DNA of 64,000 bases from NCBI GenBank assembly GCA_905178155.1, contig CAJINV010000005.1, forward strand, positions 1,986,054 to 2,050,053, written 5' to 3'. Position 1 is the first letter of the stretch; each line of letters opens with the position of its first letter. Below the pieces are notes generated by a model that made no database searches, was not told where the DNA came from, and worked only from the letters and a program-made list of their open reading frames with translations. The DNA is from Amoebophrya sp. A120. Lineage: Eukaryota; Protista; Dinoflagellata. Positions 232 to 63,710 of this stretch are shown here, in pieces. The translations under genes and the position numbers were made by a program.

Positions 232-3200
232 TCATTCTTCCTTCACCTGCTGCAACATTCTGACCTTATTGGTCGAACTGTTATCATCAACATCTTCCAC
301 TACGTCGCTCTCCGGAATTGTCACCGACGGTCGCGAGGCAGTCGCACCAGAAGTTGTGGCTGCTCCCGCTGTGTCCTCGCTAGCTGTGGTGGCCGCAGAT
401 CCGTCCTCAACTACTGGCGCGGCTGGCGGTATATGGATTGCAAATATGTCTGGGTCTGGAAGGATCCCAACTTGTGATGCTGCCTTTGGATTCTACACAG
501 AATTCGTATTTCATGAACAGCAAGGGAGGTCAAGTTTTTGCTACACAGAGAGGGCATTTCTCATGCAGTACGGGCATCAGAAAGCCGTCAAGAAAAACTC
601 TGTGATGCTAGGGCATGCATCACAGACGCCATGGGTTATGCAAAGTGTCCATGACAAACATCTGCATTCATCCAGACCCAGACATATTTGCATTCCATAC
701 GGTACGACACGACATGGCAATTCGCTTTCCCCGAACGCGATTTTCCAGACATCGTCGTACTCTTTCGCGTAAAAGATTTCAATGTTCTCCTTCAAATACG
801 CCGGCAACGCATCCACATCCCTGCGGTTGCCCTCCGGGAAAATCAGTTTCTCACAGGCGGACCGTCTTTATCCAGAGTAAAAACGTCCCCACCCCATAGT
901 CAAGAGGTAAAAATTACCAAGATGAGTTATTTGAATTGAATGAATAAGAAAATTTGCAAACAGAGGGCGCAGCGTGGCGCCGACAACAATGATCAGCAGA
1001 TATGTTGGACGGGATCAATTCGCCGAGAAGTAGTCAGCGAGCGGACGCGTCTCCGACATACATTTGCTTGTGCGCCGGATCTCCAGCTGAGTTTTTTACT
1101 GGGCGCGAGCGCCGAGTAGGGGAGGTCGCTTCTTTCGCTTTCACACAAGAATGCGGCTCGGCGAGAAAAGCCGCAAGCCAATGGCCCAAACAGAATTAAT
1201 TCGGGCCTGAATTAAATCCGCCACCACAGGCCTCACCCCGGGGCCCACGGGGGGGGAAAAATAAAAAAATCTCACTGGGCGGGAAAAAAATTCGTTTTTC
1301 CCGCCCGGAAAAAAACGAATTAAACGAATTAATCGAAAAAAAACGCGCCCAAAAAATTTGACAGGGAAATCACACATGAAATCCTGACCCAGCCCGCGGG
1401 GCCGGACCCGGAAATTAATTATTTTTAATTCCCCCTCCTGGGAGATTTTTTTTTCGATTTAATTCGAATTGATTCCGCCCCTGCTGGGCCAAAATTAAAT
1501 CCGACTCAAGGGCCAGGTTTGAATCAGGCCAAATTTTACTCGGTGCGTGGGGCCCTGTTTTTCCGGGGATGGTTTTCGTCTGGAGAAAACGCGAGTCTCC
1601 GTCGCGTCAGCATGCAGCTCCAGCAGCCATCACATCATCTGCGAGGGAGCTTGTGCAGGCCGGGCAAAACACCAACAGAAGCAAAGGACCACAACCCCAA
1701 ACAATGATGTCAACCGCTGAGCATATCAAGTCGCGCCTCCAGGTTCTGCAGCTGCAAAAAAAAAATAATTCATTTAAATGGATTAACTCATCTTGGTATT
1801 TGGACCACATAACCATAGTCAAGATGGGGAACCTGCTACACAAATCGGCCAGCTTTGGCTGTTGCGCATGACAAGTCTCGCTTCCTAGTGTAATCGTGTT
1901 GAGCTAGTTCAGCAGCATCACAGATCTAGAATGGCATGCTGATTGGAGCATCACAAATCGCAAAACACCACTCTAAAATGCTGCTCATGGGGCTCCGCAT
2001 GAGAAATATTTTAAGCACGCAGATCTGCATGACAACTATGGAGTGGGGACGTTTTTCCTTAGAATAGTCTTGCGGCGATGGTTTTCTCCTTGATGCCCCC
2101 AACGGGGAGAACCATCCCGGTCAAGGACACTTCTCCCGTCATGGCGATGTTGGGCAGGATGGATTTGTTCAAGGCAAGCGAAATGATCGCGGTGGTCATG
2201 GTGATCCCGGCGGAGGGGCTATCCTGAGTAAAAACGTCCCCACCCCAGAGTTGTGATGCAGATCTGCAAGCACAAGAGCGTTTGTAATGCGCGCTCCCAT
2301 GAGGGGCATTCTCAATCGTGTTTTGGAACTTGTAATGCTGTAAACAGCATAAGGCGATCGATTTGTTATGCGGCTTCCCTTGCTAAACTGCACTACACTA
2401 CAGCCTGCAATTTGTCATGCGTGGTTCCCAAAACTTCAAGGTTTGTGTTGCAAAATCCCCATCTTGACTCTGGGGTGGGGACGTTTTTACATAGGATAGG
2501 GACCGTCTTTCGGCGTCGCACCCTCGGGCACGTGGAGGTAAATGTCGTGCTTCCTGGCAAACTCGATTACCGCGGGGTGGAACTTTTTCGCAACCACCAT
2601 CGAGATTTTACTGGACTCCTGCATCACGTCGCCTAGACGCCCCGTCACCTGTCGTGTTTTTTGGAGGAAGGCATATATAGAGGAGCAAGAATTTATTAAC
2701 GCAAGAAGAAGTTGTACTCAGCAAACTATTGCTTCACGACGCACGAGATAAGATACAGCACAACTCGCCGTTGATCATTTTATCTCGATCAGAAAAACAT
2801 CAAGCGTTTTATATGCAAATCCCTTACATAATAAACTACGTTCAAGCTCCCTCGCCCGCTATCCGCGGTCTCGATCGCTTTTGTTTCGATATACAGCGTC
2901 GACCCGCCCAGCGCCGTCCAAGCGAGACCCATCACCACTCCGGCGGGCGGTGTCTCGTAGAGCTTGTCACTGGTGTACAGCGGCTTGCCGAGGTAGTCCG
3001 ATAAGTTCTCCGCCGTGATCGTTGGAAGGGGCTTGACTGGTGCATCAGCGGCATTTACTGTTTCTGTGGGTGCTGATGTTGAAGGAACCTGTTCACCTGC
3101 TTCTGTCGTCAAGCTTGTTGACGACGTTTTTTCGTCGGTAGTTGTACTGTCAGTGCCGGTTTTTGCTGTCGTAGTAGCTTCTGGCTCTGTAGTTGACGCA

Positions 3201-6200
3201 GGAAAAGATGCTGAAGAGGAAGAGGTTTCTGGGCTGATCGTTGTCGTGGACTCAGTTGTAGTTCCAGCGATTGCAGGACCATTCTCCGCATGATCCGAAG
3301 CTTGTTCGTTTGAAATTGAAGCCTGTGAAGTAGATGTTGTTGTACTACTGCTCTCTCCAGGTGTTATTGTCAAGTCCCCCGTTGCTTCCTCGATTGAAAT
3401 CTCTGTCTTGCTTGTTTCGGAAGATGTTGTTGAAGCTGGACCACTATCTGTGGTACTAGTTGTACTCACAGATGAATCTACTTCCGCATTCCCGTCTGCG
3501 GCGGCGATTTTCGCTTCTTCCTCTTTCTTTCGCGTCTCCTCCGCCAAAAGTTTCGCTTTTTCCTCTTCCGCCCTTTTCGCCTCTGCTACCTCAAGCTTGT
3601 CCGCGATTTCCGCGCGTTGAAAGGCCCGCTTGCGGCACAACTTCTCGATTTGCTTCTGCAGGTTTCGCACCCCCGCTTCCCGGCAGTACCACCGAATCAC
3701 GCTGTCCACCGCGTCGTTGCTGATAAAACTTATCTCGTCCTTCCCCTTCAGCCCGGACTGCTCCATCACCTTGGGAATCAAATAATTCTTCGCAATCTCC
3801 GTCTTCTCCGGGAGGTCGTATCCCGACAGCCGCACCACCTCCATGCGGTCCAGAAGCGGTTCTGGTATCGTGTCCAAGACGTTTGCCGTGCAGAGGAACA
3901 GAACCTGCGAAAAATCCACGGGTACGTCGAGGAAATGGTCCACGAAGGTGCCGTTCTGGCTGGGATCCAAAACCTCCAACAACGCACTCGACGGGTCGCC
4001 GTGCATGCCCCCGCGCCCGAGTTTGTCGATCTCGTCGATCAGGATCAAGGGGTTGTTCACTTTGGTCTGTTTCAGGCACTGGATCAGCTTCCCCGGCATG
4101 GCGCCAATGTAGGTGCGGCGGTGGCCTTTGATCTCCGCCACATCGTGCAGACCGCCTGTAGTTTCAGTATTTTTTTGAAGTTGGAGTACACAAAATATAG
4201 AAATCGTCGCATACTTAGACACCCACAGCAATAACTGCATGCTCATCATGTACATACGTACGCAGGCACCTGCAAATGCAAAACACATCATCAGCACATC
4301 ATGGGACATAAGACTGAACATGAAAATGCAAACCCACTGTTTTATGCCGAATAAAAAAAATAACTCTACTTCTATACCGACCGAGAACCGGAAAAACTCC
4401 CGATTCAGCGACTCGGCGATGCTTTTCCCAATGGAGGTCTTTCCCGTCCCTGGCGGGCCGACCAGGCAAATGATCTTTCCCTGCACCGATCCTTTTAATT
4501 TTCCAACGCCGATGAATTCCAATATTCTGTCCTTCACATCCTGCAGCCCGTAGTGGTCCCGGTCCAGGACCGTTCGCGCTTTGGACAAACTGAAATTCTC
4601 CTTCGACTGCAGGTCAAAGGGCAAAACCGTCAACCAGTCCAAATAGTTCCGCGCGACCTGGAACTCGGAGGAGTTCTTGTCCAGGAAAGACAATTTGTCC
4701 AGTTCCGCGTCGATCACTTCCTTTATCTCCTCCGGGATTTTCCGGTCTTTTATCCGTATCCCACGGAAAAACTGTTTCACTGGGATGATCTTGCAAGATC
4801 TGCATCACAAGTTTGTTACACATGACACAGAAAATTTGCCATGCGCACTTCCCAAGGGAAAACACGCTGAAAAATCCAATGTCTTGCAGGTGTAGCAAGA
4901 CAAATCGTTCTGCGCTCCATTCTCTGCATCACAAGTTCACAGTGAAACAGTTTTTTCTTGCGATAATCCGGTCCTTGAACTTGATAGCCAGCGCGTCCTT
5001 GTCGTCTTTCTCCATCCCCAGTTCCTTCTTGATCACCTTCAGCTGTTCGCGCAAATAGAAGTCCTTCTGTATTACAGTGAAAAATGCCCCCACCCTCGGA
5101 ATTTGCAGAAGTTTTCCATGCAAAGTGTCAAAATAAAAGCTTTTTGTCTTGCATAAAAGGACTGCGAGCGTTTCTGATGCAGAATCAGGGTGCGCAAGGT
5201 GCCTTGTGAATAACAGATCCGGCTGCTGTTGGGCTACTTCGCAACACAAATTTGACCTATTCAGCATGGAAAATTTGTGATGCTGAGATATGCAAGACGG
5301 GGAATGTTTCTGTTGCGAAGGTTTGCAATACAAATGCTGCCAAGCTGGGGGTGGGGGCATTTTTCACTGTAATATTCTGCTGTTTCTGCACCGTCTCCTC
5401 GACCTGGGACCGAATTTTCACCTGCGCCTCGATCACCTGCAGTTCCTTCTGCAAAAGCTGATACGCGAGCTGCAGCCGCTTCACGCCGTTCGGCTCGTGG
5501 TATGAAGTTGCACAATTGATTCCCCCTCGTTCTCAGTTTTTCATGCACAACAGCAACTGTACTACACTTTGCCTTTTAGCTTTTGCCACTACTATGCATG
5601 ACAGGTTTACAGAGAAGCCGAAGCTCAGCACTAGACTCTGTCGCGATCATTTCTTGTCATGCAAAAGCTGCACCTATCATGTCAGCACGACTCGTGTTGC
5701 TGCTCATGCCGCGTCTTGAATGCGGGGGGTCGAGGGGGAGGAGCTCTGTGCACTCTCGTATCTGGAACACCTGCATGGTCTCCTCTTTCGTGCCCGATGT
5801 CATGGCGGAGGCGAAGTCCGCCAGTCGGCCGGGGTTCTGGTGGTCCGACTTGAAGGTGGGAGACTGCATCGCGAACTCGAGGAACTCGCGGAACTGGGGG
5901 TTTAGCCGGAAGATGTCTATTGCAAGGAAAAATCCCCCCTCCCCATATTGCAAACGTATCCGTCTGAAAATTTGCGACGCGCGTTTGTGACCTCAAATCC
6001 TGTCTGTCTTGCAAGAAGGCAAGACCAGAGAGCGCCCCACATTTTGCAGGCGGTTTGTGATGCTGTTGGGCTTAGAGCATACACGGTTGTCATGCTAGTC
6101 GCCTACGTCAAAACCTCTCGACTGAGGCTTGACATATGCCTACAGTCCTCCACTGCAAGACAAATCTGATTTGTGTACGGAAATCCAGCATCAGAAACTT

Positions 6201-7659
6201 CGTTGCGATATAATGGGGAGGGGGGATTTTTCCTTTTGATAATGTCCTGGATCAGTTTGATCGTTTCTTGCACCAAAGCCCTCGATATGGATTGCAAAAA
6301 TGTCTGGGTCTGGAAGATTGCAACTTGTCATGGTAAATCTGAAGCATGCAAAAATCTATGTTGCATGAGTGCCAAAAGCTGTCCACTTTTGACCAAGTTG
6401 GAAGGGCGTTTCTTTCTCATGCAGGACAGGCATGGCAGAGACTTCGCAGAGTCTGTCATGCTCAGTCCCGCATTCCAGACCTCATGGGTCATGGAAAATC
6501 AGCATGACAAGTCTACACTTTTCCAGACCCAGACATTTTTGCACTTGATACTCGACATCTGCTCGTTTTCCTGTTCGGCGGCGGAATTCTTAGCAGTGTC
6601 GCCGTCTTTAGTACTCAAGGAGCCCGAAGAAGAAGATGATGCAGCTCCCGGGGTTCCATGCTCCGCGTTCTTGCTCCAATGCACTACGTTAGTGTGCAGC
6701 GGCGGGCCGAAGTTTTCAATTTGTTTCAGCGTTATTCTCCGATGTCCGGTCACTTGGATCTGATGCAATTCGCAGGCGTGATAAAAATCAAGATTAAGAT
6801 TGCAGTTTTATATACATTTCGAAGAAATCGCTCTTGTGAAGGACCACTTCACGACAAAGGAGGTTCTTAAAGTGGACCGATGATGATGATGATGTTACCC
6901 AGTAAAGGGTTTGGGGTGTAGAAGAATTAAACTATTCTTCAGCTTCGTCCTGTTAAACTAGTCTTCAGCTTCGATGAAATGTTACAATCTGACCTTCTCG
7001 TGAAAAAAATATCAAGTGCGTACCTGCAGTCCTCCCGTCGCCTGCAGTGGCATTACCTGCTGGATGCTAGCCAGTGTGCCGACTTCATAGAGCTGATTTG
7101 TGTTCGTCACAATCTCCTCGTCAAACGCCGAACTCCCCCTCGTCGTGGTGCTGCCCTCCTGGTCTGCGCTTTCGGCATGATCTGATGCCGTGCTGCTGCT
7201 GCTGCCTCCTGCCGCTGCTGTCGTCCCACCAGATCCTGCAATCTCTGCCGGGTCTTTCCGTAAGAACAGCCCCAGATATGGGGTCTGGCTCTGAATCAAT
7301 CGGTTAATCTCCTCTACGACTTTTGGATTCCTGACCCAGATCGGCATGCGCTGCCCGGGAAAAAGCGGCTTGCGACTGATTGGCAGGGACAGGATGGACT
7401 GAAACCGCGGGGGCTCGCCGACTTTCGACAAGCTTTTTGTCGTGGTGTTGGGCGCGCCGGCGCTGTTTCGCGCGCTGCTATTGTTTCCCGCCCCGGAGAG
7501 AACCGAGGGTCTGCGCCAGTAGGGCTCATCGGAAAAGAAGCGGAGTTGCACCTGCTGCAGCCCGCATCTGCCGAGCGGGAAGGCAAAACTCGATGGACGC
7601 GAGGTTGTTGTATACTGCGCGACCAGAGTTGACCCCGCACAAGAACCGCGGGCGAGCAT
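232..7659 (-). CDS. LONP1: Mitochondrial-type ATP-dependent Lon protease, about 12 exons
   Basis: Spliced translation gives [11 protein letters not shown] (N domain), LDRDHYGL, Walker [22 protein letters not shown], Walker B LIDEIDK, catalytic PKDGPSAG and VGGIKEK. The N-terminus is R/S-rich like a presequence. Three introns are GT-AG (6760-7023, 4156-4377, ~2649-2839) and eight are TIR elements. Confidence 0.96.
432..699. mobile_element. Introner, family A
   Basis: TIR TATGGATTGCAAATATGTCTGGGTCTGGA / TCCAGACCCAGACATATTTGCATTCCATA; TSD CGGTA; removal restores Lon CRVVP-PAAP. Confidence 0.93.
869..2066. mobile_element. Introner, family E, enlarged by a nested insertion
   Basis: TIR TATCCAGAGTAAAAACGTCCCCACCCCATAGT / ACTATGGAGTGGGGACGTTTTTCCTTAGAATA; TSD GTCTT; removal gives [16 protein letters not shown]. 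Confidence 0.9.
906..1814. mobile_element. Nested MULE-like non-autonomous TIR element
   Basis: 10-bp direct repeat ATAGTCAAGA at 896-905 and 1815-1824; GGT...ACC ends; imperfect long TIR with core TACCAAGATGAGTTA / TAACTCATCTTGGTA. Confidence 0.75.
2220..2498. mobile_element. Introner, family E
   Basis: TIR TATCCT..GTAAAAACGTCCCCACCCCAGAGT at both ends; TSD GGGGC/GGGAC; splits DGP|SAG. Confidence 0.92.
4757..4965. mobile_element. Introner, family D
   Basis: TIR TATC..GAAAAACTGTTTCACTG; TSD ATCCG; removal gives [13 protein letters not shown]. Confidence 0.92.
5070..5374. mobile_element. Introner, family C
   Basis: Perfect TIR TATTACAGTGAAAAATGCCCCCACCC; TSD TTCTG; removal gives [12 protein letters not shown]. 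Confidence 0.94.
5501..5760. mobile_element. Degenerate introner
   Basis: Imperfect TIR TATGAAGTTGCACA vs TACGAGAGTGCACA; decayed TSD (TGG shared); removal gives [13 protein letters not shown]. Confidence 0.65.
5918..6241. mobile_element. Introner, family B
   Basis: TIR TAT..AAGGAAAAATCCCCCCTCCCCAT; TSD ATGTC; removal gives [11 protein letters not shown]. Confidence 0.93.
6286..6550. mobile_element. Introner, family A
   Basis: TIR core GCAAAAATGTCTGGGTCTGGAA; TSD CTCGA; removal gives [11 protein letters not shown]. Confidence 0.93.
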
Positions 7660-8490
7660 GTTGGTGGTCGTGTCAGCTCTGCAGCTGCGCTGTTCCTCTT
7701 GCAGGAGTTTGCTCTCCCTCTATTGTCAGACCACACGAGACTGCCGCGCCTGCTGAGGACAATATACTTCCATCCCGGCTCTGAGGCCTAGAAGCCTCGC
7801 ATGGCATCCTTGGGTTTACTTGTAGCTGCTGGAGTAACGGTAAGCATGAATCAAAATTATCGATAGTCTTTACAAAGTGCTACGGATCTACGTAAGACAT
7901 CAAAATCGAGGGGATAATCAGTTATTCAGTTGTGCATGTGCTTATTTCCGCTCAGAAACAAAAACAAAACCGTGATCAAAGGAAAAATGTTGTGAAAAAC
8001 AGTTTGGAAAAAGCTTCTTTGGACCTGCTGCTGTTCTTTCGGAATTTTTAAAAGCAAGGAGGATCTACTTCGCAAAAACACTACTAAGAAGCGGCACGAA
8101 CCGAGGACCGATTTGTAGAAACTTGAGATAATCAGTTAATTTTTTGGTTCGGGAACTTCTTCTATCTTGCGTAGACCGGTGATCGAACTTCTCGCGTCTC
8201 TGGCTACTTGTACTTACCTTCTGTTTCTTGAAAAAATAACAACAAGATGAACACTGATATCGCTTTCGATTCTCTAAGCGAGAAAAGTTCCAAGTTGCAT
8301 CTTCTCGCAACTACGTTTCGTGTTTATTCGGTGCTGCTGAGAAAAGGAGCGAATAAACTATCGAGTTTTAAACGTCCTCGTGCAGCGATCATACTGCGCT
8401 CTCTTGGTTCACGCGTTCAGTTGGCGACTGACAGGCCGTTAGTTGCGCTGGAATGGACATACTGTTTCAATTCCGAGAATAAATGTTCTG

Positions 8491-17986: not shown

Positions 17987-20900
17987 TCAGCAATCGCGAC
18001 AGTTCCTTTTTTCCGCACGTAACCTGGTCGCCGCTTGCGCCGGTGGTTTTTCCGGTGGCGGCCTGGTGCTCTTCTTTTTCTGCTGCAGTTCCTGGTTGTT
18101 GTCGCTGCCGTTCGGCGGAAAAGTCGTGGTGCCGCCGCCGGACAGAGCCGCGGGCGTTCGTTCCCCGAGCGCCGCCGTCGTCGTGGGGTCTGCAACTAGT
18201 TCCGCTTCTGCCACTGTTTTTATTTCGGGCACGCTTTTACCAGCAGGGGCAGCAGCGGCTCCGGATGTGGTCGCACCTGTAGCAATTCCTGTATTTTTCG
18301 CTAGTACGCGGAGACCCGACAACGCGCCTGGCGCGTCCTCCATCTCAACGTCAGCTGCCTGCTCTTCTGCGCCCCCACGAGAACCCACGTTGCCGCCCTT
18401 GCTTTTCTCCTCTTCACTGCTGCGCGCCTTCTTGTTCCCCTGATGTCCCTCCCCGTCTTCGCTCTTTACCTCGTCGTCGTCGTCCGCACTGCTCGACCCA
18501 GATGACGAAGAACTGGAAGAACTTGAGGAAGACTCGCCACCGGCATCCGGGCTGTCCTCGGTTTCGTTTTTCTTGCCGTCATTCGTTTTTTCGCCGCCAT
18601 TTTCCTCCCCGGCCGGCGCATTTTCCTCGTTTTCCGCTTCGAGGACGGGGTCCTGTTCTTTCTGTTGCTCCAGTAGAGCGTCGACCTCAGGTAGTAGTTC
18701 TTGCCCACTGCCGTCGTCGTTTCCTTTGGTTTCATCTCGTCGTCCCTCGGTGCCCGGGTTCCGGACTTCCTGCACCCCCTCCGAGCCATCTTCCGCGTCC
18801 GCGTCCGCCGTTTTGATCAGCCGAGAGTGCTCGCACAGGAGCAACTCCGCCTCCTTGCTGCTGTAGAAAGACTCACTGGCCGGCAGGTGCTCCGCGTTGG
18901 GGGCGCGCGAAAAATCGGAGTCAGCGTCGAGCTCATGCCTGCACCCGATCGACCACGGTTGAAATTGCCACTTTTCCAGTACCTCCTGTAGGCGGTTATC
19001 ACCTTGCGCCCTGCGCGTCACACTACCCCGGTAGAACACCCGCTCCCGTAGCATATCACACAGATAAAAGCTGGCCGGTGCTGGGCATATTTGTAAACGC
19101 AAGGAAACCCACAGAGAAATTTATCTCTACTGCAAATTGTAAACAGCATGCTACGGGCTCGCCCATGGCAGACTTTGCTGTGCGTTTGTTCTTTATTTTT
19201 GCACTTTACAAATGCCGCCTGCTAGCTTTTTTCGGTGGCATACAGCACGTCGGATGCTTTTACTTCGGCCTCGGTTCCCTTCTCGACGTACATCCGCCGC
19301 GCCAAGCTTAGCGGGACAGCCAATTTCCGTTCGTACTTTCTGCCGTTGTTGGGGTGGGGGGTTTTGCTTTCTATTCTCGTGAAAAAGATGACTGCTCTCG
19401 AGGACTACAACTAACTTTCAAAACACAGCTAGCTCTCTATTCCGAAGACTACAAGCGGGCCAAAAAATCTTCCTGTCTGCTGCACGCTCGCGTGGCACAA
19501 ATAATTGTGGGTGGTTTCATGCAACTTCACCACACAACAAGTGCCCAAACTTATGTGCTGCGCCACCAGTTTCCCAAGCAGCAGAGAGAGGAAAAGGGAA
19601 AAAATGCATAAGAAACGAAACAAAAAGCAGCAGCATGACCCCAGCAGTTCTTGGAGCTCGCGGACCGCGTCTTTTCCACGGGGTAAAATCAATGTCAAAG
19701 AGGTTGTCCTGCCGCTGGAAATTCCTCGCCATTTTCAAACCTACTTTTTTATCTGGGTAGGAAACCGTGTCGGGCGGGCCGTCGGTATGCATTGCAAAAA
19801 ATGTGTCTACTGGGTCTGAAAGAGTGCAACGTTTGTCATGAACATTTTGCATGACCCGTGCTGTCTGTGGTGCGTCCCCTAGCATCATAAATTTCTGAAA
19901 AACTCTTGGTCGTGTCTTGGTCTTGATGCCTGTTCCACATGAGTAGAAGTGCCTTCTCCGCGTACTGAAAAAAGTGGACTGACTCCCCTCGGTCTCGCTT
20001 CATATGCAATACAACAGGCTCCTGTTGTATCTGAGAATCCAAAAAATGCAGCATCACAAGGTGCACTCTTCCTGATCGCCGAACCTCAAATTTGCAAAAA
20101 TGCATAGTCGGCTTGGTGCGCCAAGTCTGGCGGGTCGAGGTCGTTGAACGTGTGCTGCGCGTACAGCTTGAGCAGGTGGTGCGTGTCCCTCTGGTCCGTT
20201 GCCGAAAGGGAAAAAAGTCTCCGGACCAAGCAATCCGGCACTTTGCCACTCTTGTTCTTCAACTTCCGCGCGCCCGTCGCCGGGTCGGTCTCGTAAAACG
20301 TCCGATAGTAGGCGGCCTCCGCGCGCGTCACGAGGTACCGCGGACAGGGGCCGACGACCTGCAGCACCATGTCGATGTGCACCCGCGCCGCCCGGTTTTC
20401 CCCCAACTTCTCCCGCCGCGGGTCCAGCGTCCGCGTGTAGCTCGGGAAGAGCTTGTGGCCACCCACGAAGGTCTCAAAGGACAGCACGGCGAAGGACCAC
20501 ATGTCGACGGCCGGGGTTGGCTATCAAATGTAAAAATGTCTGGGTCTAGAAACTTGTCATGCTGGTTGGCGTATCATGAGGCGGCCACAAATGCTGGCTC
20601 AGCATGACAAGTTTCTGAGCTCCTGGGTGTTGCCTATTCTGCATGACAAACTGCGCTTCTGCATCACAGAAACGCGGAGCTCTTGGGTAACGTGCATGAC
20701 AGATTTAAGAGTTATGCCAGACAAGCATGACAAACGTGAATTCTTCCAGACCCAGACATTTTTACATTTCATATTAGCGGCCAGTCCCCCATCCAGATCT
20801 CCGGCGCCCGGTACCAGGGAGGCGAGATGTGCTGCGATTATCACAATGAAAAGTGCCCCCCACCCCTGAAATTGCAAGTATTTGTGGTGCGCAGTTTCCA

Positions 20901-33300: not shown

Positions 33301-34521
33301 TTACAAGTAGTAGATGGGCTGGGGTGCTGGCTTCGTTTTGATACAACATTGATCGTATTCCTGACACAAAACGGAGAACAGCTTTTGTACCTGCTTTTTC
33401 CCTTCTTTCTGGGCCTGCTCATCAAGTCCGAATCTTTCGCGCAATGCCTCGGTTCTCCGTTCAAGGTTCTCGATCTCGTTCTCGAGTTCGTCTGTTAAAA
33501 ACCAATATGCAGCAACGTCATCCAAACTCATCTCGATGGATCTGAGACGTTCATCCAACGGCAAGTATTGTTCCCCGGTCGCGTAGAGGCGGACGGACCA
33601 CAGCCGCTTTTCAACTTTGTCCGATAACTCTTGTATTTGTTGTTGTGTATCCAATCGCTGGTCCTCTTCCATGTCCCCCTTGTCAAGCGCGTCCCATGCT
33701 CTCACCAGCTCTGCATGATCCTTCTTTGCAAGCTGAAAATCCGCACGAGCTTCAGCAGCCCTGTCAGGGCCAGCAGAAATAACCTCAGCAGGACTAGCAG
33801 GAGGGGCAGCATCAGCAAGAGCAGCAGCAGGGTGGGCTTGCTGCGTCACTTGGTGGGCTTTAGGAGCATGATGAGGGGCAGCAGGAGGATCTTTAGCAGC
33901 AGGAGGATCTTTAGCAGCAGGAGGATATTTAGCAGCAGGAGGATCTTTAGCAGCAGGAGGATCTTTAGCAGCAGGAGGATCTTTAGCAGCAGGAGGAGGT
34001 TTAGCAGGACGACGACGAGGCACAGAGGGAGCAGTTACTGGTCGGCTTTGTGCTGCTTGATGCAAAGGACGAGTGTAGTGGGGAGGCGCAACGGCCTGGG
34101 GTGTGGCGCCCGGGACGAGCGGCTGTAAGCCCCCGCCCTGGCCGCCACCGCCCTGGCCGCCCCCGCCCTGGTCGCCCCCCACGTGGTCACCATCACCCTG
34201 GCCACCCGAAGCTTGAGCGCGAGCACTTTGAAGTGGACCGGTTTTCGTTGATGGAGGTGGTCCGCAGCAGTCCCTCCGCTCCAGAAATTCCTGATCTGGC
34301 AACTTGGCAGGTGGAGCCATTGCAGCTTTTTCTTCCGCGTTGACGTCTTCCCGGTCAACATCGTTACCGCGGTGTTTCTCGTTCTCGTCCAAGAGCCCAA
34401 CGGTTTCGCTTTCGTGCAGAATTACACGAGCCTCCCCGCCAAGTGGCAGAACGGCGGCGAAGCAGATGGCAGCGAGGTACCCGCCCGTAGTCGTCATCAC
34501 CGAAGTATTTCTGGAGCCCAC
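33301..34521 (-). CDS. Putative secreted protein with Gly-rich and PPAAKD repeats and a coiled-coil C-terminus
   Basis: 406-aa ORF with a signal-peptide-like N-terminus (YLAAICFAAVLPLGGEA); may have a further 3' exon near 32950-33140. Confidence 0.75.
   Translation of the reverse strand: MGSRNTSVMTTTGGYLAAICFAAVLPLGGEARVILHESETVGLLDENEKHRGNDVDREDVNAEEKAAMAPPAKLPDQEFLERRDCCGPPPSTKTGPLQSARAQASGGQGDGDHVGGDQGGGGQGGGGQGGGLQPLVPGATPQAVAPPHYTRPLHQAAQSRPVTAPSVPRRRPAKPPPAAKDPPAAKDPPAAKDPPAAKYPPAAKDPPAAKDPPAAPHHAPKAHQVTQQAHPAAALADAAPPASPAEVISAGPDRAAEARADFQLAKKDHAELVRAWDALDKGDMEEDQRLDTQQQIQELSDKVEKRLWSVRLYATGEQYLPLDERLRSIEMSLDDVAAYWFLTDELENEIENLERRTEALRERFGLDEQAQKEGKKQVQKLFSVLCQEYDQCCIKTKPAPQPIYYL
33878..34008. 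repeat. 18-bp coding tandem repeat (GCAGCAGGAGGATCTTTA), about 7 units
   Basis: Visible array encoding PPAAKD on the minus strand. Confidence 0.95.
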
Positions 34522-54185: not shown

Positions 54186-57100
54186 CTACCACCCATTCGG
54201 CGCCCCCATTTTCCCGTTACCCTTCTTGCCCTTGCCGCCCTTCTCTGACGAGGCTGTAAAAAATCCTGGATGTTGACCGTGGTGTTGCAGTATGCATTGC
54301 AAACGCACCATCTTCGTGCTAGTAGTTGTAATTGCACACGATCCACAAATGATCACTCCAGAACAATTATGGAAGAACGCGCTAATATGCAGAGTCAGGT
54401 ACTTCTAAAGCAAAACACGTCCACCGACATGGAACAGGGTGCAATTCCAATTCCTAGTACGAGTACGACACTGTTGCAGAGGATATGCAAAGAACTACCG
54501 TACTGATTGCAATAGAGATTGTTCTCTCCGCCCTTCTTTCGCTCGGATCCGATATCCCGAATCAACTTAGCGGTCATCCTATCAAATGTAAAAATGTCTG
54601 GGTCTGGAAGAGTGCGCGATTTGTCATGCACATTTTGCATGACTCCTGATGTCTGTGATGCATGCCCTAGCATCAAAGATTTTGTGAGGGCTTCCTGATG
54701 CCTATACCGCATGACAAATGCTCTTTCCGCTTAGCAAAACTTGGACTCTCTTTGCTGCTCATGCAAGACAGATTTTTTTAAAAATCAAAAATCAGCATGA
54801 CAAGCTGGATTCTTCCAGACCCAGACATTTTTACAGTTGATACATCCGCCCACCCTATCCGAATTCACAACCCCCGCCTCCCTACTTATCTCATTCGCAG
54901 GGCACATGCAGAAAAAACAGCGGCAAGAACAGAAGCAGAACCGTGTATTAAATAAGTAGCTTTTATTGCATGACGCAGCTATCTATCAGAACTGTAGTAC
55001 CATGCCTTCTGGGAACTAGGACCGCTTCTCCGGTCGTGTGTGAATAAATTGCAAAAATTTTGCACGACAAATACCAAGGAGGGCCGCGAGTAGTTGCGCA
55101 CTCGGATACAAACCAGTTGGTTTTTTCGCCCTCCGACACTTGCGACCCGTACTTTTGCCACAAAGAATGCAACTTATCCAGCACGTCATACATGTCCTCG
55201 GCGCCCTCCCGCCCGTACTCGCTATCAAATGCAAATACGTACTTAGCAGTCTGGAAGTAGATGAGTTGTGGCTGCAGCATATGATATTGCGTGTTACGAC
55301 ATCAAAAGCGCTTGCTGTTGTTCACTTCTTGTGTCGTTCAGCAAAATAAACTACACGTCACTTTGTCATGCGTAAAAATCTGGAGCCCGATGCGCCCGTC
55401 GTAAAATAATTTCTCATGCTTGACTAATATGCAGCCGGTGCAACAGCGCGCTAGCTAGATGTGTCCGATCACGAAGTTGCATCGCAATTTCATAATTTTT
55501 CCAGACTCAGACTACATATTTGCTATGGATACTTGTTGAGCCTCGCCAACTTCTCCAAAACGGTCATGTCCAGCACATCCGCGGCGCAAATATCCTTCAG
55601 AAAAGTCGTACACCCATACCGGAAAAAAAGATTTGCGCTGCTGTTTTTCTGTCGTGTGATGCTGATCTGCGAGAGCGCCAACAACAACACTCTTTCAGGC
55701 ATAAAAAAATGGACCACTACGAGAATGCAGAAAATATGTGCGTCAATGGGCATGAGAAGGGTCATCGTGCGAACATTGCTTGCCATGCTGAACAGAACAG
55801 GTTTTATTCCGGGACTCACTCTTTGTCTTTCTGACACAGAAAAAGAGCATGTTCTTGGAAAATATCTTCAACTCCGGTAAAGCTGTATCAGTACTTCTAC
55901 TTTTGGATAGCAGACCCCATCCTCCGAAAAGCTGCTGTCAAAGCTATCAATCACCACTTCATAGTCCGCGCGGTTCTTTTGTCTCCAGCTGCTGGTCGCT
56001 CCTCCTGCGTTACCACTAGATGAGCAGGTAGCTGTGCCCGAATTGTTCGCATTGTTCTCTGACAGTTTCCGGGATGAAACAGAGCTAGGATGCGGCGCAC
56101 CATAGTGCACCCCTATCAAATGCAAAAGTGTCTGGGTCTGGAAGAATACAAACTTCTGATGCGCATTTCAGAACACAGAAAAATCTCTCATGCACGGGTA
56201 GCAAAAGCTGCCCGCTTTCTGTCACCAAAGTGGGGGATTTGTCATGCGGATTCAGCATTGCGGAAGCTTCTCGAAACCTGTAATGCTAGAGCTTCCATGC
56301 CAGACCTTCTGTGTCATGTTGGGAAGCTAAGGGCTGGGCGTCCCTGTCTTTCTCTAAACCTTAAAACGGTAGCCACTTACTCGACAAACTCTAGGTAGAA
56401 TAAGTTTGGACAAAGTGATCACTACCGAGAGACAACAACAAAATAAAGGCTCCTGGGACGGCTGCGGCGTGAGCATTTGTTGCTATCTGGGTAGGGATAA
56501 CGTTGTATGCAAACCTAAACACTAGCGTCAAGGGAGAAAAGAAAAGTAAAAAAGCGGTAAACTATCCTACTATGACACAGTCCCAACTACGAAAAAACCC
56601 CTCTTAAAAAGTGAGGCAAGATGTAATGTAGTTGTTTTCATGGCGAGCAGCCGCAAACGAGGCGAACTGTCGCAGCGGACAAATGCAAAAACGTCCGCAA
56701 CCGAGGGAGCAAAGATGGAACCGCAAACGCCACCGACCGAGACAGCATCAGATCATGCAAAAGGTCGGAACAAGCCCGAAAACACAAGGGCGGAGCAACT
56801 ACATTACAAACCCCAAGACGGGAAATATAACTATCTAACCCAAGCTAAAATAAGTAATAATCTACCTTAACTAACACTCTATACTAGCGCGCGTCTAAAC
56901 TTCTGTGTAGTGTCATGCAAAAACAGCATGACTCTTCCAGACCCAGACATTTTTACTCTTGATAACCCCAGTCGGCGCACAGAACTGCTTCACTCGGTTC
57001 TGCAACAGGTATCTGACGGGAACGAACGCGTTGGTTTGGTACCGATTGTAGCTCCCACTGGTGCTGTTCATTCCGCTGTAGTAACCCGTGTGCCACCCAC

Positions 57101-60100
57101 CCATGCTGCCACCAGCGCCCGCATACTGGCTGTTGTTTTCCCGGATCTTGGCAACGTCCTCGATAGCAGTCGGCCGGAACACGAGATGGTATCCAAGAAT
57201 GAATAAAGTGGTAACAATCACAACTTACGACCCAGCACGTATTGCTGCAAGTACTTATAACAACTTCTGAGCATGACAGAGAAATAAAATATTAGTATAT
57301 TTGCAAGAAGAAAAAGATCATTCATAAAAGAGGTAATAAAAACGTGTCGTGAAACTAGGCTCCCAAGCATGAAATCCCGCATGAGCATGACAGATGAACT
57401 GGTCTGCCTTAATACTTCCTTGGTCCTCTCTACAACACTACAATCGGTCGTCGTAAGTAACCACTGTAATTATTCCTACACTTTCTCTTTTGCATAGATC
57501 GGGCTTGGTCGCGAGTAGAAACCGCTATGGATTGCAAAAATGTCTGGGTCTGGAAGAGCCAAACTTGTGAAGCTGCATTTGGATGCTAAAAAACCTGTAT
57601 TGCATGACCAGCAAGAGGATTCAAATTTGGCTACGCGGAGAGGGCATTTGTCATGCTGGATGCGCATAGATAAGCGCTCAAAAAATCTGTGATGCTATTG
57701 CTATAGCATACATCACAGACATCATGGATCATGGAAAATGTGCATGACAAAGTTGTGCTCTTCCAAACCCAGACATTGTTGCAAGCCATAACCGCAGGAG
57801 CAAGGCGATGTTCTCCGTGTCCGCCGTTCCCTTATCAAACAAAAAAAGTTCGTCACGATCACTCATGCGCATTTTTGCAATACAGAACTGTTTGTCATGC
57901 GTAAAAATGCATCACAGCCAAACTTTATCAGGGATTTCCCTAGTGTTTCTGCAATACAAGGAAAATTTGTGATGCTAAGAAAATTTGTAATGCAAACCCT
58001 GCAAATTAGCGACTGTGATAAACTTTTTTCTCTCCATATCCCTGGTGGTGACAGCAGTACTGCATCGAGCCCTCCCCGGTCCGTTCGAGCATTTCGTTCC
58101 AAGACTTCTTCGGGGTGATCTGCGGCGTGTATCGGAACCCGTGGAGAGCCACGGTGGGCGCTTTGAAGTATTTCTGCATCTTCATATGGATTGCAAAAAT
58201 GTCTGGGTCGGGAAGAGTGCAAACTTGTCATGCAGAATTTGCATGCCCCATAAGGTCTGGAATGCAGGACATAGCATGACAGATTCTGCGAGGTCTCTAT
58301 CATGCCTGTCCTGCATGAGAAGTTCCCTCTCATGGTGGTCAGAAAAGGGCGTCTTTTGTTGATCACGCAAGACAGATTTTTGTGTGATCCACAGGACGCA
58401 TCACAAGTCCCATCCTTCCAGTAGACCCAGACATTTTTACATTTGATACTTCACCATCCCGGACAATTCCTCCGCCTATCGAAAGGAAAAATCCCCGCTC
58501 CCCATATCGAAAACGAAATTTGTGATGCTGTATTTGAGGTCACAAATCGGCTTGTCATGCTGGAAGGCCAAAGCCGCAGTCGCGGCCTCGTTTGCAAGCC
58601 ATTTGTCATGTTGGGAAACTAAGGGCAGGGCGTCCCTTTGTAAATCAGAACTACAAAGTTTAAACCGCCTGCTCGGTAAACTCTAAAGCAGAAAATTGAA
58701 CTGCGCGATTTCTACCGAGAGACAACAACCGAAACTCCTGGGACGGCTGCGACGTGAGTTCTGTTGTTATCTGAGTAGAAATAGCACTGTGCAACCATCG
58801 TGCCTTAGCACCGAGGGAACAGAAAAAATAAAAAAGGTGTGAAGAAGCTAACTATGACACAGTCCCACTTACCCAAAGAACCATCCTAAAGGTGGTATCT
58901 CGAATTTCTAGCATGAAGGAACTGATTGGTTTGGAAAATGGGGTTGCGATCGTGGCGCCAACAACCAAATCCAGGGACCAGCATGCAAAGGACCCGAGGA
59001 ACCACGAGGTTGGTGTGTCCAGCATGACAAACACGTCGTCAAAGACAAAAAATGCCACGAGACCGGAGTAAATCATGACCAAACCGAGGAATTGCATGAC
59101 AAATTTGGCCGAGCTGTAACAAATTCGAGAACCAGGACGGAAAAAGTGTACTTGACCAGCGTAGTGGTCGCGTACTACGAACCCCTAGGAAGAAAGTAAA
59201 TATCATTTAAAGTCAGGTTCTATAGTAAAAATTTCGCGCGTTTGTAAAACTAGACCGGTCAAAAACCACTTCTGCCTGTGCCGTCTCTATTCTATATTCC
59301 CTTGCTACCCTAAGAAGTAGCACTTAAATGCAAGTCATACAAGAACACGTTGACCATGGTATGCAAAAGCCGGCGCATCTACCGAGTTTTCGTTCCCAAC
59401 AGGCAAATTGCAAGCCAACGCGCAAGCCATTTGTCATGCTGTTTCCCACTCTCAGCTGCCTCCTATCATGCTGAAGATACAAGGCTTCCCCACGCCACCC
59501 AGCACTACAGTCCGCATCTTTTCCCGTGTAGCATGTTGATTTGTGACAACAAATCTGGATCACAGATTTCCGTTTTGATATGGGGAGGGGGGATTTTTCC
59601 TCTCAATACCGCCAGCGCGATCTTTTCCGCCGCCGTGGTCTCCCGAGCGAAAGTTCCGTTGTGCAGCACGTAGTCGAACGCGAGGTCTTTCAAATTACAC
59701 CACCGGGACAGCAGCGCCACAAACGGGTGCTTCTCCGCCTCTCGAATGCAAATATCGATCTGGTGATGTTCTGGAAAGAAGTACCGGATGAAACTTGTGA
59801 TCATGCGAGTTGTCACCAGCACTAGCACTTCTCAACTTGTTGCGTCGGCCGCCAAGCATGAGCACAACAAGTTCGGGAGATGCTACGTGCTGCCGATTCT
59901 GTATCTGTTCCTGCCTGCTACGAACTGCGGTACCTGAAAGTATACAGAAACATCCGGCTAAGTACTTACTTTACTTTTGCATGCTTAAGGTGCGTGACAG
60001 ACTTTTGAGAGTCGAGCCAGCCGAACATGACAAAGCTTGCGCTCTTCCAGAGGACCCAGATCGATATTTTCAATGCATACGGGCCGGTTTGCGTTGATTT

Positions 60101-61890
60101 CCCGCATTTCGGACCGGAGCGCGTTGGCGTCGAAGTCCCCGCAGTGCACGAGCAGCGAATTTTCCGGCGTGAAATCCGGCAACTCCTGATTCAGCTTCAC
60201 CCACAAGTCCGTCAGCGCCTGGGGCAGGAACACCGCATTGCTCTGGTCATTGATCCGGATGTCCCCCCGGTTTTCGTGCTGGTGTACGGAAGTTCGGTTT
60301 ATCCAATGCAAAAGTGTCTGGGTCTGGAAGATTGTGAAGAGATTTGTCATGCATATTTCGGATCACGCAAATGGCGTCTGGTGCAGGCAACAGCATCACA
60401 GGTTCTGAGCACGTCTCATGATGCCTGTCGCGCCGCATGAGAAACTTCCTACTTGCGTACCAACAAATGGACAGCTTTTGGCGCTCATTCAACACAAATT
60501 TTTGAGTGTTCCAGAGTTTGCATCACAAGTTCCAACTCTTCCCGACCCAGACATTTTTACATTTGCTACGGTTCTTCCGCTGGTCCTGCTTCGGAGACGG
60601 CGTCGAGGTGGACTATTGAAAGGAAAGATCCCCCCTCCCCATATCGAAAAGGTACGTCGCAGAAAATTTGCCATGCTGATTTGCGACCACAAATCATCTC
60701 TGTCTTGCAAGAAGGCAATTCCACAGGCTCCGCCGCATTATGGAGGCGGTTTGTGATGCGGTTTGGCCGACAGCGCAGACGTTTCTGATGCTAAGCGCCT
60801 AGGCCAAAACCTCTCTACTCAGGCTTGATGTAGGCCTGTCGTCCCCTTCCGCAAGACAAATCTGATTTGTGTACGCAAATCCAGCATCACAGATTTCCGT
60901 TTTGATATGGGGAGGGGGGATTTTTCTTTTCGATATGGACATCGCAATCGACATTTGACACAGCGGCCACCATGCCGGGCACATGGAATGCCCCCCGCTG
61001 GTGGAGTAGCAGGAAGTGGCATCGTCCGCGGGGTCCTTTTTGCTTGCAGAAGTGCTGCTCTTCGCGTTGCGGCTCGAATGGTTCGAACTCGGGGTGGTGC
61101 TGTCGCTGTTCCAGCTCGCGTTCATCTTCTGTTCCTGAGCGGCGTAATCCATACTCTCCTGCACCCCCCTGCTGCGGACCCAGCGATGGAAGCGCATCGC
61201 CTCCTTCAGGTCGTCCTGGAGAGCGAGCACAATGACCGGCAGCTCAATGATCCCCTCCCGCCCTTCCACGTCGATCACCAGCGCGTACTTCAGTTCCGGA
61301 AAGTCCGCCGGGGTGCTGGGGTTGCTTACCGCGTATTTTTGCACGCCCGTGCGACCGAGGTACCCCGGAATCGGCCAGTTCTCGGATCGCGCCACCATTT
61401 TCTATCCAGTGCAAATATATGTCTTTTTCTGCTAAAAGGATTCATTTACAATTTGTCATGGTGGTCCTTCCCTTTTACGGCAGAACAGCATGACAAGCGC
61501 TCCTTGACTCCTTGCGACGACCTCTAGTGTGTTTAGTGTGACACACTGAGTTTCACAGCAGAAAGCCTGCTCGTCAATCGTATTTACATCCTCGCTGTCC
61601 CTCAAATTTTTGCGCATCACAAAAAATCCAGACCCAAACATATTTCTTGCAATGCATATTTTCGACTCCTCCGCAAAGTGCGACTTGCCGGCGGGCGACC
61701 CGTAGTCCCGGTCAAGGTTCCCCCGCAGCCACTCCTGCTCCAGCAGCTGCCCGTCGTCCTTGTGGTGCCGCTTCTTGACCCAGTTTCCGTTCATCCCAAC
61801 CCGCTCCTTGCAAACCTTGTTCTCCGCGGCATTCGGACAGTATCCCGCGGCGTAGTACTTGCACGGGATGTCTGTCGCGAGAAAATTCAT
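54186..61890 (-). CDS. ERI-family DEDDh 3'-5' exoribonuclease with N-terminal CCCH-like zinc finger and long C-terminal extension
   Basis: After element removal: ExoI VIDVEG..IIELP, FHRWVR, ExoII HCGDFD, WCNLK, ExoIII HHQGTADTENIA; N-terminal CKYYAAGYC. The junction near 55610-55910 is uncertain. Confidence 0.8.
54580..54842. mobile_element. Introner, family A
   Basis: TIR TATCAA(A/C)TGTAAAAATGTCTGGGTCTGGAAGA; TSD CATCC. Confidence 0.94.
54856..55108. mobile_element. Introner (TATCCGA..CAAC type)
   Basis: TIR TATCCGAATTCACAAC vs TATCCGAGTGCGCAAC; TSD CACCC/CAAAC; removal gives TNWFGRMTAK. Confidence 0.72.
55223..55531. mobile_element. Introner, family A (diverged)
   Basis: TAT...ATA ends with GCAAATA..GTCTGGAA; TSD CTCGC/CTTGT; removal gives RLNKYGREG. 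Confidence 0.75.
56114..56964. mobile_element. Introner, family A, carrying a nested insertion
   Basis: TIRs intact; TSD ACCCC; removal gives APTGVHYGAP; about 590 bp longer than its siblings. Confidence 0.92.
56319..56909. mobile_element. Nested TGTCATG-targeting element, copy 1
   Basis: Flanked by GTGTCATG direct repeats; first ~265 nt homologous to 58611-58867. Confidence 0.8.
57190..57496. mobile_element. Degenerate introner
   Basis: TAT...ATA ends; TSD GATGG/GATCG; removal gives TKPDLVFRPT. Confidence 0.75.
57526..57790. mobile_element. Introner, family A
   Basis: TSD ACCGC; removal gives LLLRFLLATK. Confidence 0.92.
57833..58038. mobile_element. Introner (AAAAAAGTT..TCAC type)
   Basis: TSD TCCCT; removal gives HHQGTADTEN (ExoIII motif). 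Confidence 0.88.
58185..58448. mobile_element. Introner, family A
   Basis: TSD CTTCA; removal gives GMVKMQKYF. Confidence 0.92.
58477..59608. mobile_element. Introner, family B, carrying a nested insertion
   Basis: TIR AGGAAAAATCCCC.CTCCCCATATC; TSD CCGCC; removal gives KIALAEELSG. Confidence 0.92.
58611..59421. mobile_element. Nested TGTCATG-targeting element, copy 2
   Basis: 17-bp direct repeat GCAAGCCATTTGTCATG at 58594-58610 and 59422-59438; homologous to copy 1. Confidence 0.85.
59740..60079. mobile_element. Introner (AATATCGATCTGG variant)
   Basis: TIR core AAATATCGATCTGG; decayed TSD; removal gives NRPEKHPF. Confidence 0.78.
60300..60568. mobile_element. Introner, family A
   Basis: TSD CGGTT; removal gives QRKNRTSVH. 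Confidence 0.92.
60614..60935. mobile_element. Introner, family B
   Basis: TSD TGGAC; removal gives IAMSTSTPS. Confidence 0.93.
61403..61658. mobile_element. Introner, family A (diverged)
   Basis: TSD TTTTC; removal gives EESKMVARS. Confidence 0.85.
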
Positions 61891-62119: not shown

Positions 62120-63289
62120 GTGCCGCTGGTCAGCTTAGCTTTCACGAGAGGTGGAGGACAGTGGTAGCTGCAGGTCGACGTTCCCGGGGGCGTGGTTAGC
62201 TTTCAGGGGGAAGGGGAGGGGATTCTCCTGGGGGCGAAAACTCTGCAGGCGCAGGGCTTTTGAGTGCGCCGGAGCCCCCTGGAGGAAGACAAAGGCGTGA
62301 CAGCGGCCCGCCCCAGGCCCCTGGAGAAGGAGAAGCACCGGGAAACCGAAAGAACACCCGGGGCGAGCCCACCCTGGGAGGGGACGAGCCCTCCAGGGTG
62401 TTCCCAATTTGCGAGCACCCCCCCAAGTTGCGAGCCTTAAGGGCGGCCGCTCGTCATTCTAGCTACGCCCCACTCTATTTCTAGTTACGCCGCCAAGGCG
62501 GTGGGGCTGCTTTCGACGGAGCCCACAGGGCCGCAGCTGCGGAAGCTGCGCGACAAAAAACCTGGCCAGCCAGGCAGGTGCAACCAGCCCAGGGGGACTA
62601 GGCGCACTGTGTGTGATGGCCATTCCTTCGGGGCAGCGAGAAAAGGCGCCGCTTTCTTTGCGCAGGGCGGCGGGGGCATCCACACGAGGAGGGGCCTCCG
62701 CCGCGAGGCAAAACGGGGTAGCCCAAACAAAGCGCAAAGCCATCCCGGGCACCGTGGCCGGGCCGGAGCTGCTAGTTCGCCTGCACCTGCGGGCGCAGCA
62801 GCGCGCAGCGCGCCACCCTCAGTCAGACAAATAAGCCCTTTCCCTCCCACGGCTGCGCCCCCTTTTCCCAGGAACGAGCGCCACGTCCCGCGCTACCACA
62901 CAGACACGGGTTGCTCGGCGCTAGTTTCTCCACAGGGGGCGAGGGAAGCCAGCAGCGCTGGCGAGCTCTGTGGCGCAAGCTCGGGGCGAGCCGACCCGCG
63001 CGCGGGGCAATGGGGGCGATTTTGTACTAGTAAGCTTTCTCCTAGTAAACTCTCTACTAGTACGCTTACTAGTAGTTTTTTTCCTTCCGTGTCACGTTAA
63101 ACTTACTAGTAACGTTGTTCACTAGTAAAATTCTTGGATTTTCCTTACTAGTAAGATTTTACTAGTAGAAATCGGGCCATGCGTCAATCACTTTCCTTGC
63201 CGTATAGTATATAGGGTATTGTGCCGCTGGTCAGCTTAGCTTTCACGAGAGGTGGAGGACAGTGGTAGCTGTAGGTCGACGTTCCCGGG
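62120..63289. repeat. 69-bp direct repeat pair (62120-62188 and 63221-63289) enclosing a GC-rich segment and an ACTAGT-rich tract
   Basis: GTGCCGCTGGTCAGCTTAGC...GACGTTCCCGGG occurs twice with one mismatch. Confidence 0.9.
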
Positions 63290-63344: not shown

Positions 63345-63710
63345 TTGTTTTAAGCCTTAAAGTGCCTAATCTAGGAAATCGCGTTCATAAGGTTTAAGCA
63401 TTAGAACGCCTAATCTAAGAAGTCGCAATTTAAGCACTCGAGCGCTTAAACTCACGGAAACGCAGATTGCAGCAATTTGCTCTAGCAAATTTCAAATTTG
63501 TCCACACAGCTTCAAAGATAGCCAGTCAATTAGCCATTCGAATGCTTAAAATGACTGCTTATTTTCAAGCAGTTAAGCACTCGAATGGCTAAACTGATTA
63601 TTTGTCTGTGAAGTTGCGTGAACAAATTTGAATTTGCCCAGCAGAGCAAATCTCAGACGCAGATTGCAATCTGTGTTTCCGTGAATTTAAGCACTCGAAT
63701 GCCTAAACGC
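63345..63710. repeat. Degenerate repeats of TTAAGCACTCGAATG(C/G)CTAAA and ACGCAGATTGCA
   Basis: Several imperfect copies, some inverted. Confidence 0.65.

Follow-up and report, generated by a model that had tools for sequence, protein, structure and literature searches.

A structured RNA block with a target-matching hexamer at the fixed end of site-specific insertions in Amoebophrya introners

The conserved block at 56309..56585 of the window, i.e., of the whole 64,000-nucleotide stretch of Amoebophrya sp. A120 DNA that was analysed, is the fixed end of longer insertions of 284-1430 nt, which lie at 8 distinct sites within TAT…ATA introners. On balance, we regard the block as the likely 3' RNA module of a non-coding, target-specific retroelement of the non-LTR type that inserts via target-primed reverse transcription (TPRT), with its hexamer UGUCAU predicted to sit on the RNA's own tail. 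The observed basis is a fixed junction, variable truncation, target-site duplications of 7-19 nt, a single target motif, structure on the minus strand and sense orientation. A preliminary description of this DNA, whose coordinates and motifs were correct, had proposed a structured RNA containing a segment complementary to its own insertion site. The mobile insertion is indeed site-specific and does hold a structured RNA that is conserved and includes a conserved segment of this kind, but what had been taken for a self-contained block of about 280 nt is in fact only one end of variably truncated insertions flanked by duplications. The features are listed in Table 1.

Table 1. Positions in the window of the host gene, its two enlarged introners, the element copies and their conserved segments.
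Feature	Position	Strand	Description
Host protein gene	54189..61890	minus	orthologous to an unnamed protein of Amoebophrya sp. A120 (692 aa)
Host introner 1	56114..56964		terminal inverted repeats (TAT…ATA) and a direct repeat of 5 nt
Target-site duplication of copy 1, fixed-junction side	56311..56318		8 nt, ends TGTCATG
Element copy 1	56319..56909	minus	591 nt, truncated at its 5' end near 56900; the RNA 3' end lies at 56319
3'-terminal segment GGGACG…UUCCCAA	56319..56344	minus	invariant or nearly so; pairings putative
Long irregular hairpin	56380..56532	minus	41 consensus pairs, 9 with both sides changed; apical loop conserved
Apical-loop CGUCCC	56455..56460	minus	candidate pseudoknot partner of 56339-56344
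Hexamer UGUCAU	56572..56577	minus	within a 17-nt run identical in copies 1 and 2; complements 3' flank AUGACA
GUUGGGA adjoining the hexamer	56581..56587	minus	in subfamily 1, can pair with the 3'-terminal 7 nt
Target-site duplication of copy 1, truncated-end side	56910..56917		second 8-nt copy
Host introner 2	58477..59608		from another TAT…ATA family; direct repeat of 5 nt
Target-site duplication of copy 2, fixed-junction side	58594..58610		17 nt
Element copy 2	58611..59421	minus	of subfamily 2 and 811 nt long; 3' block conserved at 58611-58890, hexamer at 58854-58859
Second conserved domain, both subfamilies	59266..59321	minus	hairpin 59304-59321 with a U-A/C-G exchange
Distal UUGGGAA	59393..59399	minus	complements the 3'-terminal 7 nt; in copy 2 and L014, not in L019
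Target-site duplication of copy 2, truncated-end side	59422..59438		second 17-nt copy, partial target repeat before it

The window holds exactly two copies, as found by blastn (E ~5e-29, 70% identity over 300 nt) and by a covariance model, whose weak match at 19556-19646 (E 0.003) was rejected because the block is absent there. A two-motif pattern scan of metagenome contigs returned 18 matches; 7 of them, all from assembly JACKZZ01, are homologous copies (the L-numbered loci L004, L006, L007, L011, L014, L019, etc.), and the other 11 were dropped as chance, the best of these reaching 10.6 bits. L008 was omitted from the alignments because it represents the same site as L007, and the 8 distinct sites are copies 1 and 2 plus the JACKZZ01 loci. 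Since the search pattern contained GGGACG and the hexamer, both are fixed in the 7 fetched loci. Pattern scans found a single unrelated match in viral contigs and none in genome contigs, and the L014 element gave no blastn match to plasmids or phages.

The junction TGTCATG|TTGGGAA is identical at all 8 sites, the next target base being C in each of them, and in six additional contigs from sequencing runs the match likewise starts exactly at TGTCATG. The far end shows 8 different lengths (284, 312, 396, 501, 591, 720, 811 and 1430 nt), and short copies break off within sequence that is continued in longer relatives; other contigs also continue the element past the stop of copy 1 at 56900. The duplications, in the same order of sites, measure 17, 19, 7, 18, 8, 11, 17 and at least 15 nt, and all end in TGTCATG. 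At the truncated junction, copies 1 and 2, L004 and L007 carry partial target repeats or extra bases, in copy 1 as 9 nt that resemble a partial target repeat. In L011 the truncated end repeats 8 nt of the upstream target in inverted form just before the duplication, which suggests priming or template switching on the other strand. No further motif-ended duplications enclosing inserts were found in the window or the loci. One end fixed, the other at 8 lengths and duplications of 7-19 nt are not the ends of an LTR or solo LTR, so that the reading of the hexamer match as short inverted LTR termini is disfavoured.

The copies form two subfamilies, which are about 70% alike; copy 1 shares 96% identity with L019 over 589 nt, and copy 2 shares 72% with L014 over 777 nt. 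A copy identical to copy 1 over 166 nt is present at another site, and the family has apparently been mobile recently. Copy 1 also carries a perfect 13-nt inverted repeat (56622-56634 and 56796-56808, 187 nt apart) without a flanking duplication.

By homology, both copies in the window lie in sense to their host gene. The exons of this gene run on the minus strand from 61890 down to 54189 with TAT…ATA elements bearing 5-nt direct repeats in between, and the exon at 60060-60299 matches the A120 protein at 100% over 73 aa; a peptidyl-tRNA hydrolase frame in the window is 89% identical to an A120 protein. Introner 1 is an intron of the host gene, with the exons of A120 protein P0121 stopping at 56964 and restarting at 56113, and it grew to 851 nt, from about 260 nt, when copy 1 inserted. 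Introner 2 measures 1132 nt compared to about 310-320 nt in its empty relatives, the excess in the two introners being about 600 and 830 nt. Across the 8 sites, the hosts have inverted repeats and a 5-nt direct repeat in 5 cases and inverted repeats only in 2, and one host is cut by the contig end. Introners of the A120 type are described as having a TAT start, an A run and direct repeats of 3-5 nt (PMC7789003, accessible text), and non-LTR-derived introners have also been reported in A120 (PMC12130899, accessible text). One RNA-library assembly contains the element, in contigs that reveal neither strand nor transcription, and in 3 runs labelled with the same species the raw RNA reads covered neither the element nor the host exons.

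Several other features were seen in the window. An introner at 869-2066 is 1198 nt long in a family that normally measures about 260-300 nt, and the unrelated sequence of about 900 nt within it, with A/T runs and GC-rich palindromic stretches, is possibly another nested element. A Lon protease gene on the minus strand (2789-7719) is interrupted by at least 5 introners of several families. A 69-nt direct repeat (62120-62188 and 63221-63289, 99% identical, 1101 nt apart) flanks a GC-rich stretch, and beyond it, at 63349-63708, short direct repeats are clustered with inverted ones; this is perhaps another mobile element or a promoter region. An 18-nt tandem repeat present 8 times at 33842-34033 encodes PPAAKD units of a predicted secreted protein on the minus strand.

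A fixed end combined with a truncated end and variable duplications is the pattern of target-primed reverse transcription. The fixed end is therefore taken as the 3' end of the RNA, and the RNA as the minus strand, whereas the preliminary description had read the plus strand. The folding energies agree: the consensus reaches -55.1 on the minus and -39.6 on the plus strand (alifold), the central 145 nt give z -2.4 to -6.5 on the minus compared to -0.8 to -2.1 on the plus strand in 5 of 5 copies, and whole copy 2 gives -3.9 compared to -1.7. The plus-strand block alone folds no better than shuffles (z -0.31 and -0.81). With each strand folded separately, 7 Watson-Crick/G-U toggles fall on the minus and 2 on the plus strand, while Watson-Crick/A-C toggles number 0 and 4, respectively. 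Folding, wobble polarity and junction geometry thus all favour the minus strand as the structured one. 5' truncation and a structured, stringently recognised 3' end are features of LINEs (PMC3747384, accessible text).

Within this RNA, the long hairpin of the preliminary description is real and extends further than had been noted. Its covariation score was reached by none of 500 shuffles and 98% of its cells pair, compared to 34-51% in slid controls, but the covariation mostly reflects one split, as most double changes separate only the two subfamilies (effective sequence number 1.29). The pairing of TGGGA with TCCCA is also present, with 89% of cells paired and no compensatory change; the terminal helix comprises 7 bp (GTTGGGA/TCCCAAC) in 5 of 8 aligned copies and 5 bp in copy 2, and is further broken in L004 and L014. 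Both motifs of the proposed CGTCCC/GGGACG pseudoknot are invariant in 8 of 8 copies and so lend the pairing no covariation support; GGGACG was part of the search pattern. The same lack of covariation in the 8-copy alignment holds for the terminal helix and the hexamer-flank helix.

The 3'-terminal segment is predicted either to fold into a local hairpin or to bind the apical loop, in which case its last 7 nt would find an upstream partner. These 7 nt have three possible partners, i.e., the local GGGA, the segment beside the hexamer, which is a perfect partner in 5 of 5 subfamily-1 copies, and a segment about 785 nt upstream. A distal GACGGY complementary to the apical loop in 3 of 3 long copies was dropped because it is absent from the continuation at 56900 seen in two runs. 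Further 5', a stretch of 33-38 nt (919-956 of the L014 element, 686-718 of the L019 element) is 92-94% identical between the subfamilies; neither viral nor prokaryote contigs contained a match to it.

Copies that are only 70% alike share three identical runs of 17-18 nt, and the hexamer is part of one of them. Such runs offer 48 hexamer starts, and a match to the target has a chance probability of about 0.01, calculated post hoc and before allowing for motif enrichment. TGTCAT occurs 74 times in the window, with 2-3 extra occurrences within subfamily-2 elements, and since it is enriched genome-wide, the match is only modestly unlikely. The proposed 10-bp match to the target holds at copy 1, which is 1 of 8 sites; common to all 8 are only 6 bp and the next base. 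The segment had also been called invariant, but in an unbiased set of contigs of the same organism A>G is seen at 56575, in 385 of 796 (run X1) and 204 of 570 (run X2) of summed depth, among the 40 rows listed of 63. This variant, TATGGCAC, reads UGCCAU in the RNA and has a natural matching motif, TGCCATGC, present 11 times in the window. Being the sequence of the would-be priming DNA strand, UGUCAU can pair with a read-through tail or with the sense DNA strand. On the favoured strand it complements the 3' flank and not the 5' exon, therefore the suggested analogy with the EBS1-IBS1 pairing of group II introns does not apply.

All 8 insertions use TGTCATGC, although the window holds TGTCATGC 53, TGTGATGC 42 and TGCCATGC 11 times; the probability of this is 0.004 if sites were used by abundance, assuming the same motif mix in the other assembly. 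This exclusive use indicates that the site is read base by base, either by a protein or by RNA. For an 8-mer, about 2 occurrences of each would be expected. The three motifs often form inverted pairs about 7 nt apart, spread over several unrelated introner families, and they are likely a shared protein-binding site. The element is clearly in sense to the host gene at 6 of 8 sites, including L004, L006, L007 and L011 by a codon model on both flanks; L019 is mixed, L014 is weak, and none is clearly antisense. Six of six in sense would occur by chance once in 64, and the motif itself has no such preference, with 12 occurrences in one orientation and 13 in the other among 18 introners of the window. 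The bias could stem from targeting of a displaced strand during transcription, or from selection against an A-rich antisense strand.

We hypothesize the following course of insertion. The element would be transcribed by read-through in host pre-mRNA or in an excised introner, giving an RNA that ends in …UUCCCAA followed by the flank (C)AUGACA. UGUCAU and the adjoining GUUGGGA would hold the tail and the terminus and so mark the end of the template, and a hypothetical reverse transcriptase acting in trans would bind the long hairpin; the partner is hypothetical since neither a reverse transcriptase nor an endonuclease was found in 1430 nt of element. The strand reading TGTCAT(G) would be nicked, displace UGUCAU from the tail and prime cDNA synthesis, which would halt at variable points and jump to the target 7-19 nt further on, leaving a duplication and partial target repeats. 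A read-through donor is favoured by the final ~50 nt of L014, which start at a further target motif and resemble the introner flank of a donor, in one case only. In R2, downstream homology on the RNA raises the accuracy of TPRT and is not required for its start (PMC10499050, accessible text). The hexamer-tail pairing is the same in every aligned copy and therefore lacks covariation support. The A>G variant counts against it, for this variant would mismatch an AUGACA tail unless the target changed too. Against the model also stands the duplication of L011, which is nothing beyond the 7-nt motif. The sense bias is not explained by TPRT alone, and selection would be needed in addition.

The same hexamer could instead choose the target, which we consider possible, though unlikely. 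UGUCAU would then pair with the ATGACA just 3' of the insertion point on the sense DNA strand, probably when host transcription displaces that strand. The primer for the RNA tail would be the opposite strand, or else a ribozyme step, as in linear group II introns, would join the RNA 3' end to DNA. Such guidance would suit the exclusive use of TGTCATGC, since TGTGATGC and TGCCATGC together are equally common, as well as the sense orientation despite motifs in both orientations and the matching motif of the UGCCAU variant. The match also ends at the junction, and …AC is a possible reading of the element end; the RNAs of linear group II introns join their 3' end to the downstream exon in a reaction completed by end joining (PMC3898094, accessible text). 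However, a match of six base pairs is short, guide and target showed no covariation with the hexamer fixed by the search pattern in the 7 fetched loci, and neither a shared domain V-like hairpin nor an Rfam ribozyme was found. The motif is accounted for just as well by a sequence-specific endonuclease, and the orientation could result from selection. It is a tentative idea that the internal UGUCAU and the target-derived tail swap partners with both DNA strands of the introner motif within transcribed genes, in which case recoding six bases would retarget the element; a choice of target guided by RNA at all is likewise possible, though unlikely.

We find it quite improbable that the block is an ordinary long 3' UTR of a site-specific LINE whose protein alone reads the target, the hexamer being a chance match or a protein-binding copy. 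TGTCATGC is frequent in the window and occurs inside the elements too, the hexamer tolerates a common substitution and extends to 10 bp at a single site, R2 starts without RNA-target homology (PMC10499050, accessible text), and target-specific LINEs of the Tx group exist (PMC3747384, accessible text). This reading has to contend with a hexamer that is kept in its 17-nt run across subfamilies, lies right next to another stretch able to pair with the RNA terminus and has A as its next base, while G follows 67 of the 74 window occurrences of TGTCAT. We hold for very improbable a plus-strand ribozyme of about 280 nt that applies an EBS1-like segment to the 5' exon, and likewise an LTR with short inverted ends. 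On the plus strand the element would start with GUUGG and carry the hexamer about 255 nt in, the A>G variant would retain a G-U pair, and the plus strand is A-rich (33-36%). The strand tests nevertheless favour the minus strand and there are no paired LTRs. Moreover, copies reach 1430 nt and are truncated at the would-be 3' end, which disfavours the plus strand because reverse transcription from the 3' end cannot give 3'-truncated copies.

Assignment of the element to a known class gives a similar picture. Read on the minus strand, a fixed 3' end, variable 5' truncation, variable duplications and a conserved structured 3' end were all found, as in non-LTR elements. An ORF search found none in the 1430 nt of L014, and Pfam detected no reverse transcriptase, endonuclease or other domain in 8 frames of L014 and no reverse transcriptase among 9 frames of the window. 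A SINE-type head of tRNA, 7SL or 5S origin was not seen, with no tRNA genes in 4 loci and no Rfam match of L014, though the copies may lack a true 5' end. The absence of domain V and of a hammerhead core, stated previously, was confirmed by Rfam and motif scans. Rfam gave no match above the gathering threshold in the window, and in targeted searches at E up to 10 it gave only weak snoRNA matches (E 0.85-7.1), which were rejected. A relaxed domain V descriptor found no hairpin that is common to the copies or at the expected place, directly before domain VI. Group II introns end in AY with a bulged A at -7 or -8; here U occupies both positions in 8 of 8 copies, though the end may be AC. A Penelope-like element or retrozyme would carry a hammerhead core, CUGANGA, and pseudo-LTR repeats; no such core was found on either strand of 9 copies, which may not be full-length. 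Group I and lariat-capping ribozymes have a P3-P7 core, a U-G at the 5' splice site and a terminal G; they were rejected, there being no Rfam match, look-alike motifs on the plus strand, and junctions with duplications and truncations. Look-alikes of RNase P/MRP, SRP, telomerase, twister and hairpin ribozymes were dropped for want of Rfam support or for wrong order or strand.

The family is apparently undescribed. No description was found in the accessible literature, while supplementary files and subscription papers outside it could hold the family; its motifs are absent from 12 of 14 supplementary files of PMC12130899 and from the single file of PMC7789003. The findings point to a recently mobile retroposed family that parasitises introners and is concealed in sequence that is spliced out. 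If the hexamer is a guide, this would be RNA-directed target-primed insertion in a eukaryotic nucleus. To our knowledge, known non-LTR elements choose their targets by protein. RNA guidance, if true, would bear on the origin of LINEs from group II introns and on programmable gene insertion, and a ribozyme step, if real, would link group II introns and non-LTR elements. As a guide variant occurs naturally, existing genomes suffice for testing the guide question.

The host introners match the A120 type of Amoebophrya introners as far as these are described in the accessible text of PMC7789003 and PMC12130899, but the present element is a passenger within introners and not the intron itself. IS110 bridge RNAs resemble it in being non-coding RNAs of a mobile element with an internal target-matching stretch; their role is to direct a recombinase on DNA, and covariation led to their discovery (PMC11208160, accessible text), whereas the junctions here point to reverse transcription. 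Linear group II retrohoming shares the exact RNA 3' end readable as AC, a site-complementary segment, a variable far junction and a small terminal hairpin, but the 6-nt pairing with the 3' flank is not EBS1/EBS2, domain V, branch A, reverse transcriptase and Rfam match are missing, and the element is nuclear. The closest parallels are those with R2, R1/SART1 and the Tx1 group and with their non-autonomous derivatives, which likewise have a fixed 3' junction at one motif, 5' truncation, variable duplications and a structured 3' end, and likewise parasitise a multicopy target. In SART1, target-like triplets in the 3' UTR may anneal to the primer strand (PMC7265360, accessible text); the internal hexamer of the present element is itself the primer-strand sequence, therefore it cannot anneal to the primer in this way and matches the 3' flank. 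Unlike R2, SART1 and Tx1, the element has no ORF in 1430 nt and no poly(A) or simple-repeat tail, its target is a motif inside introners, and its copies lie in sense to the host genes.
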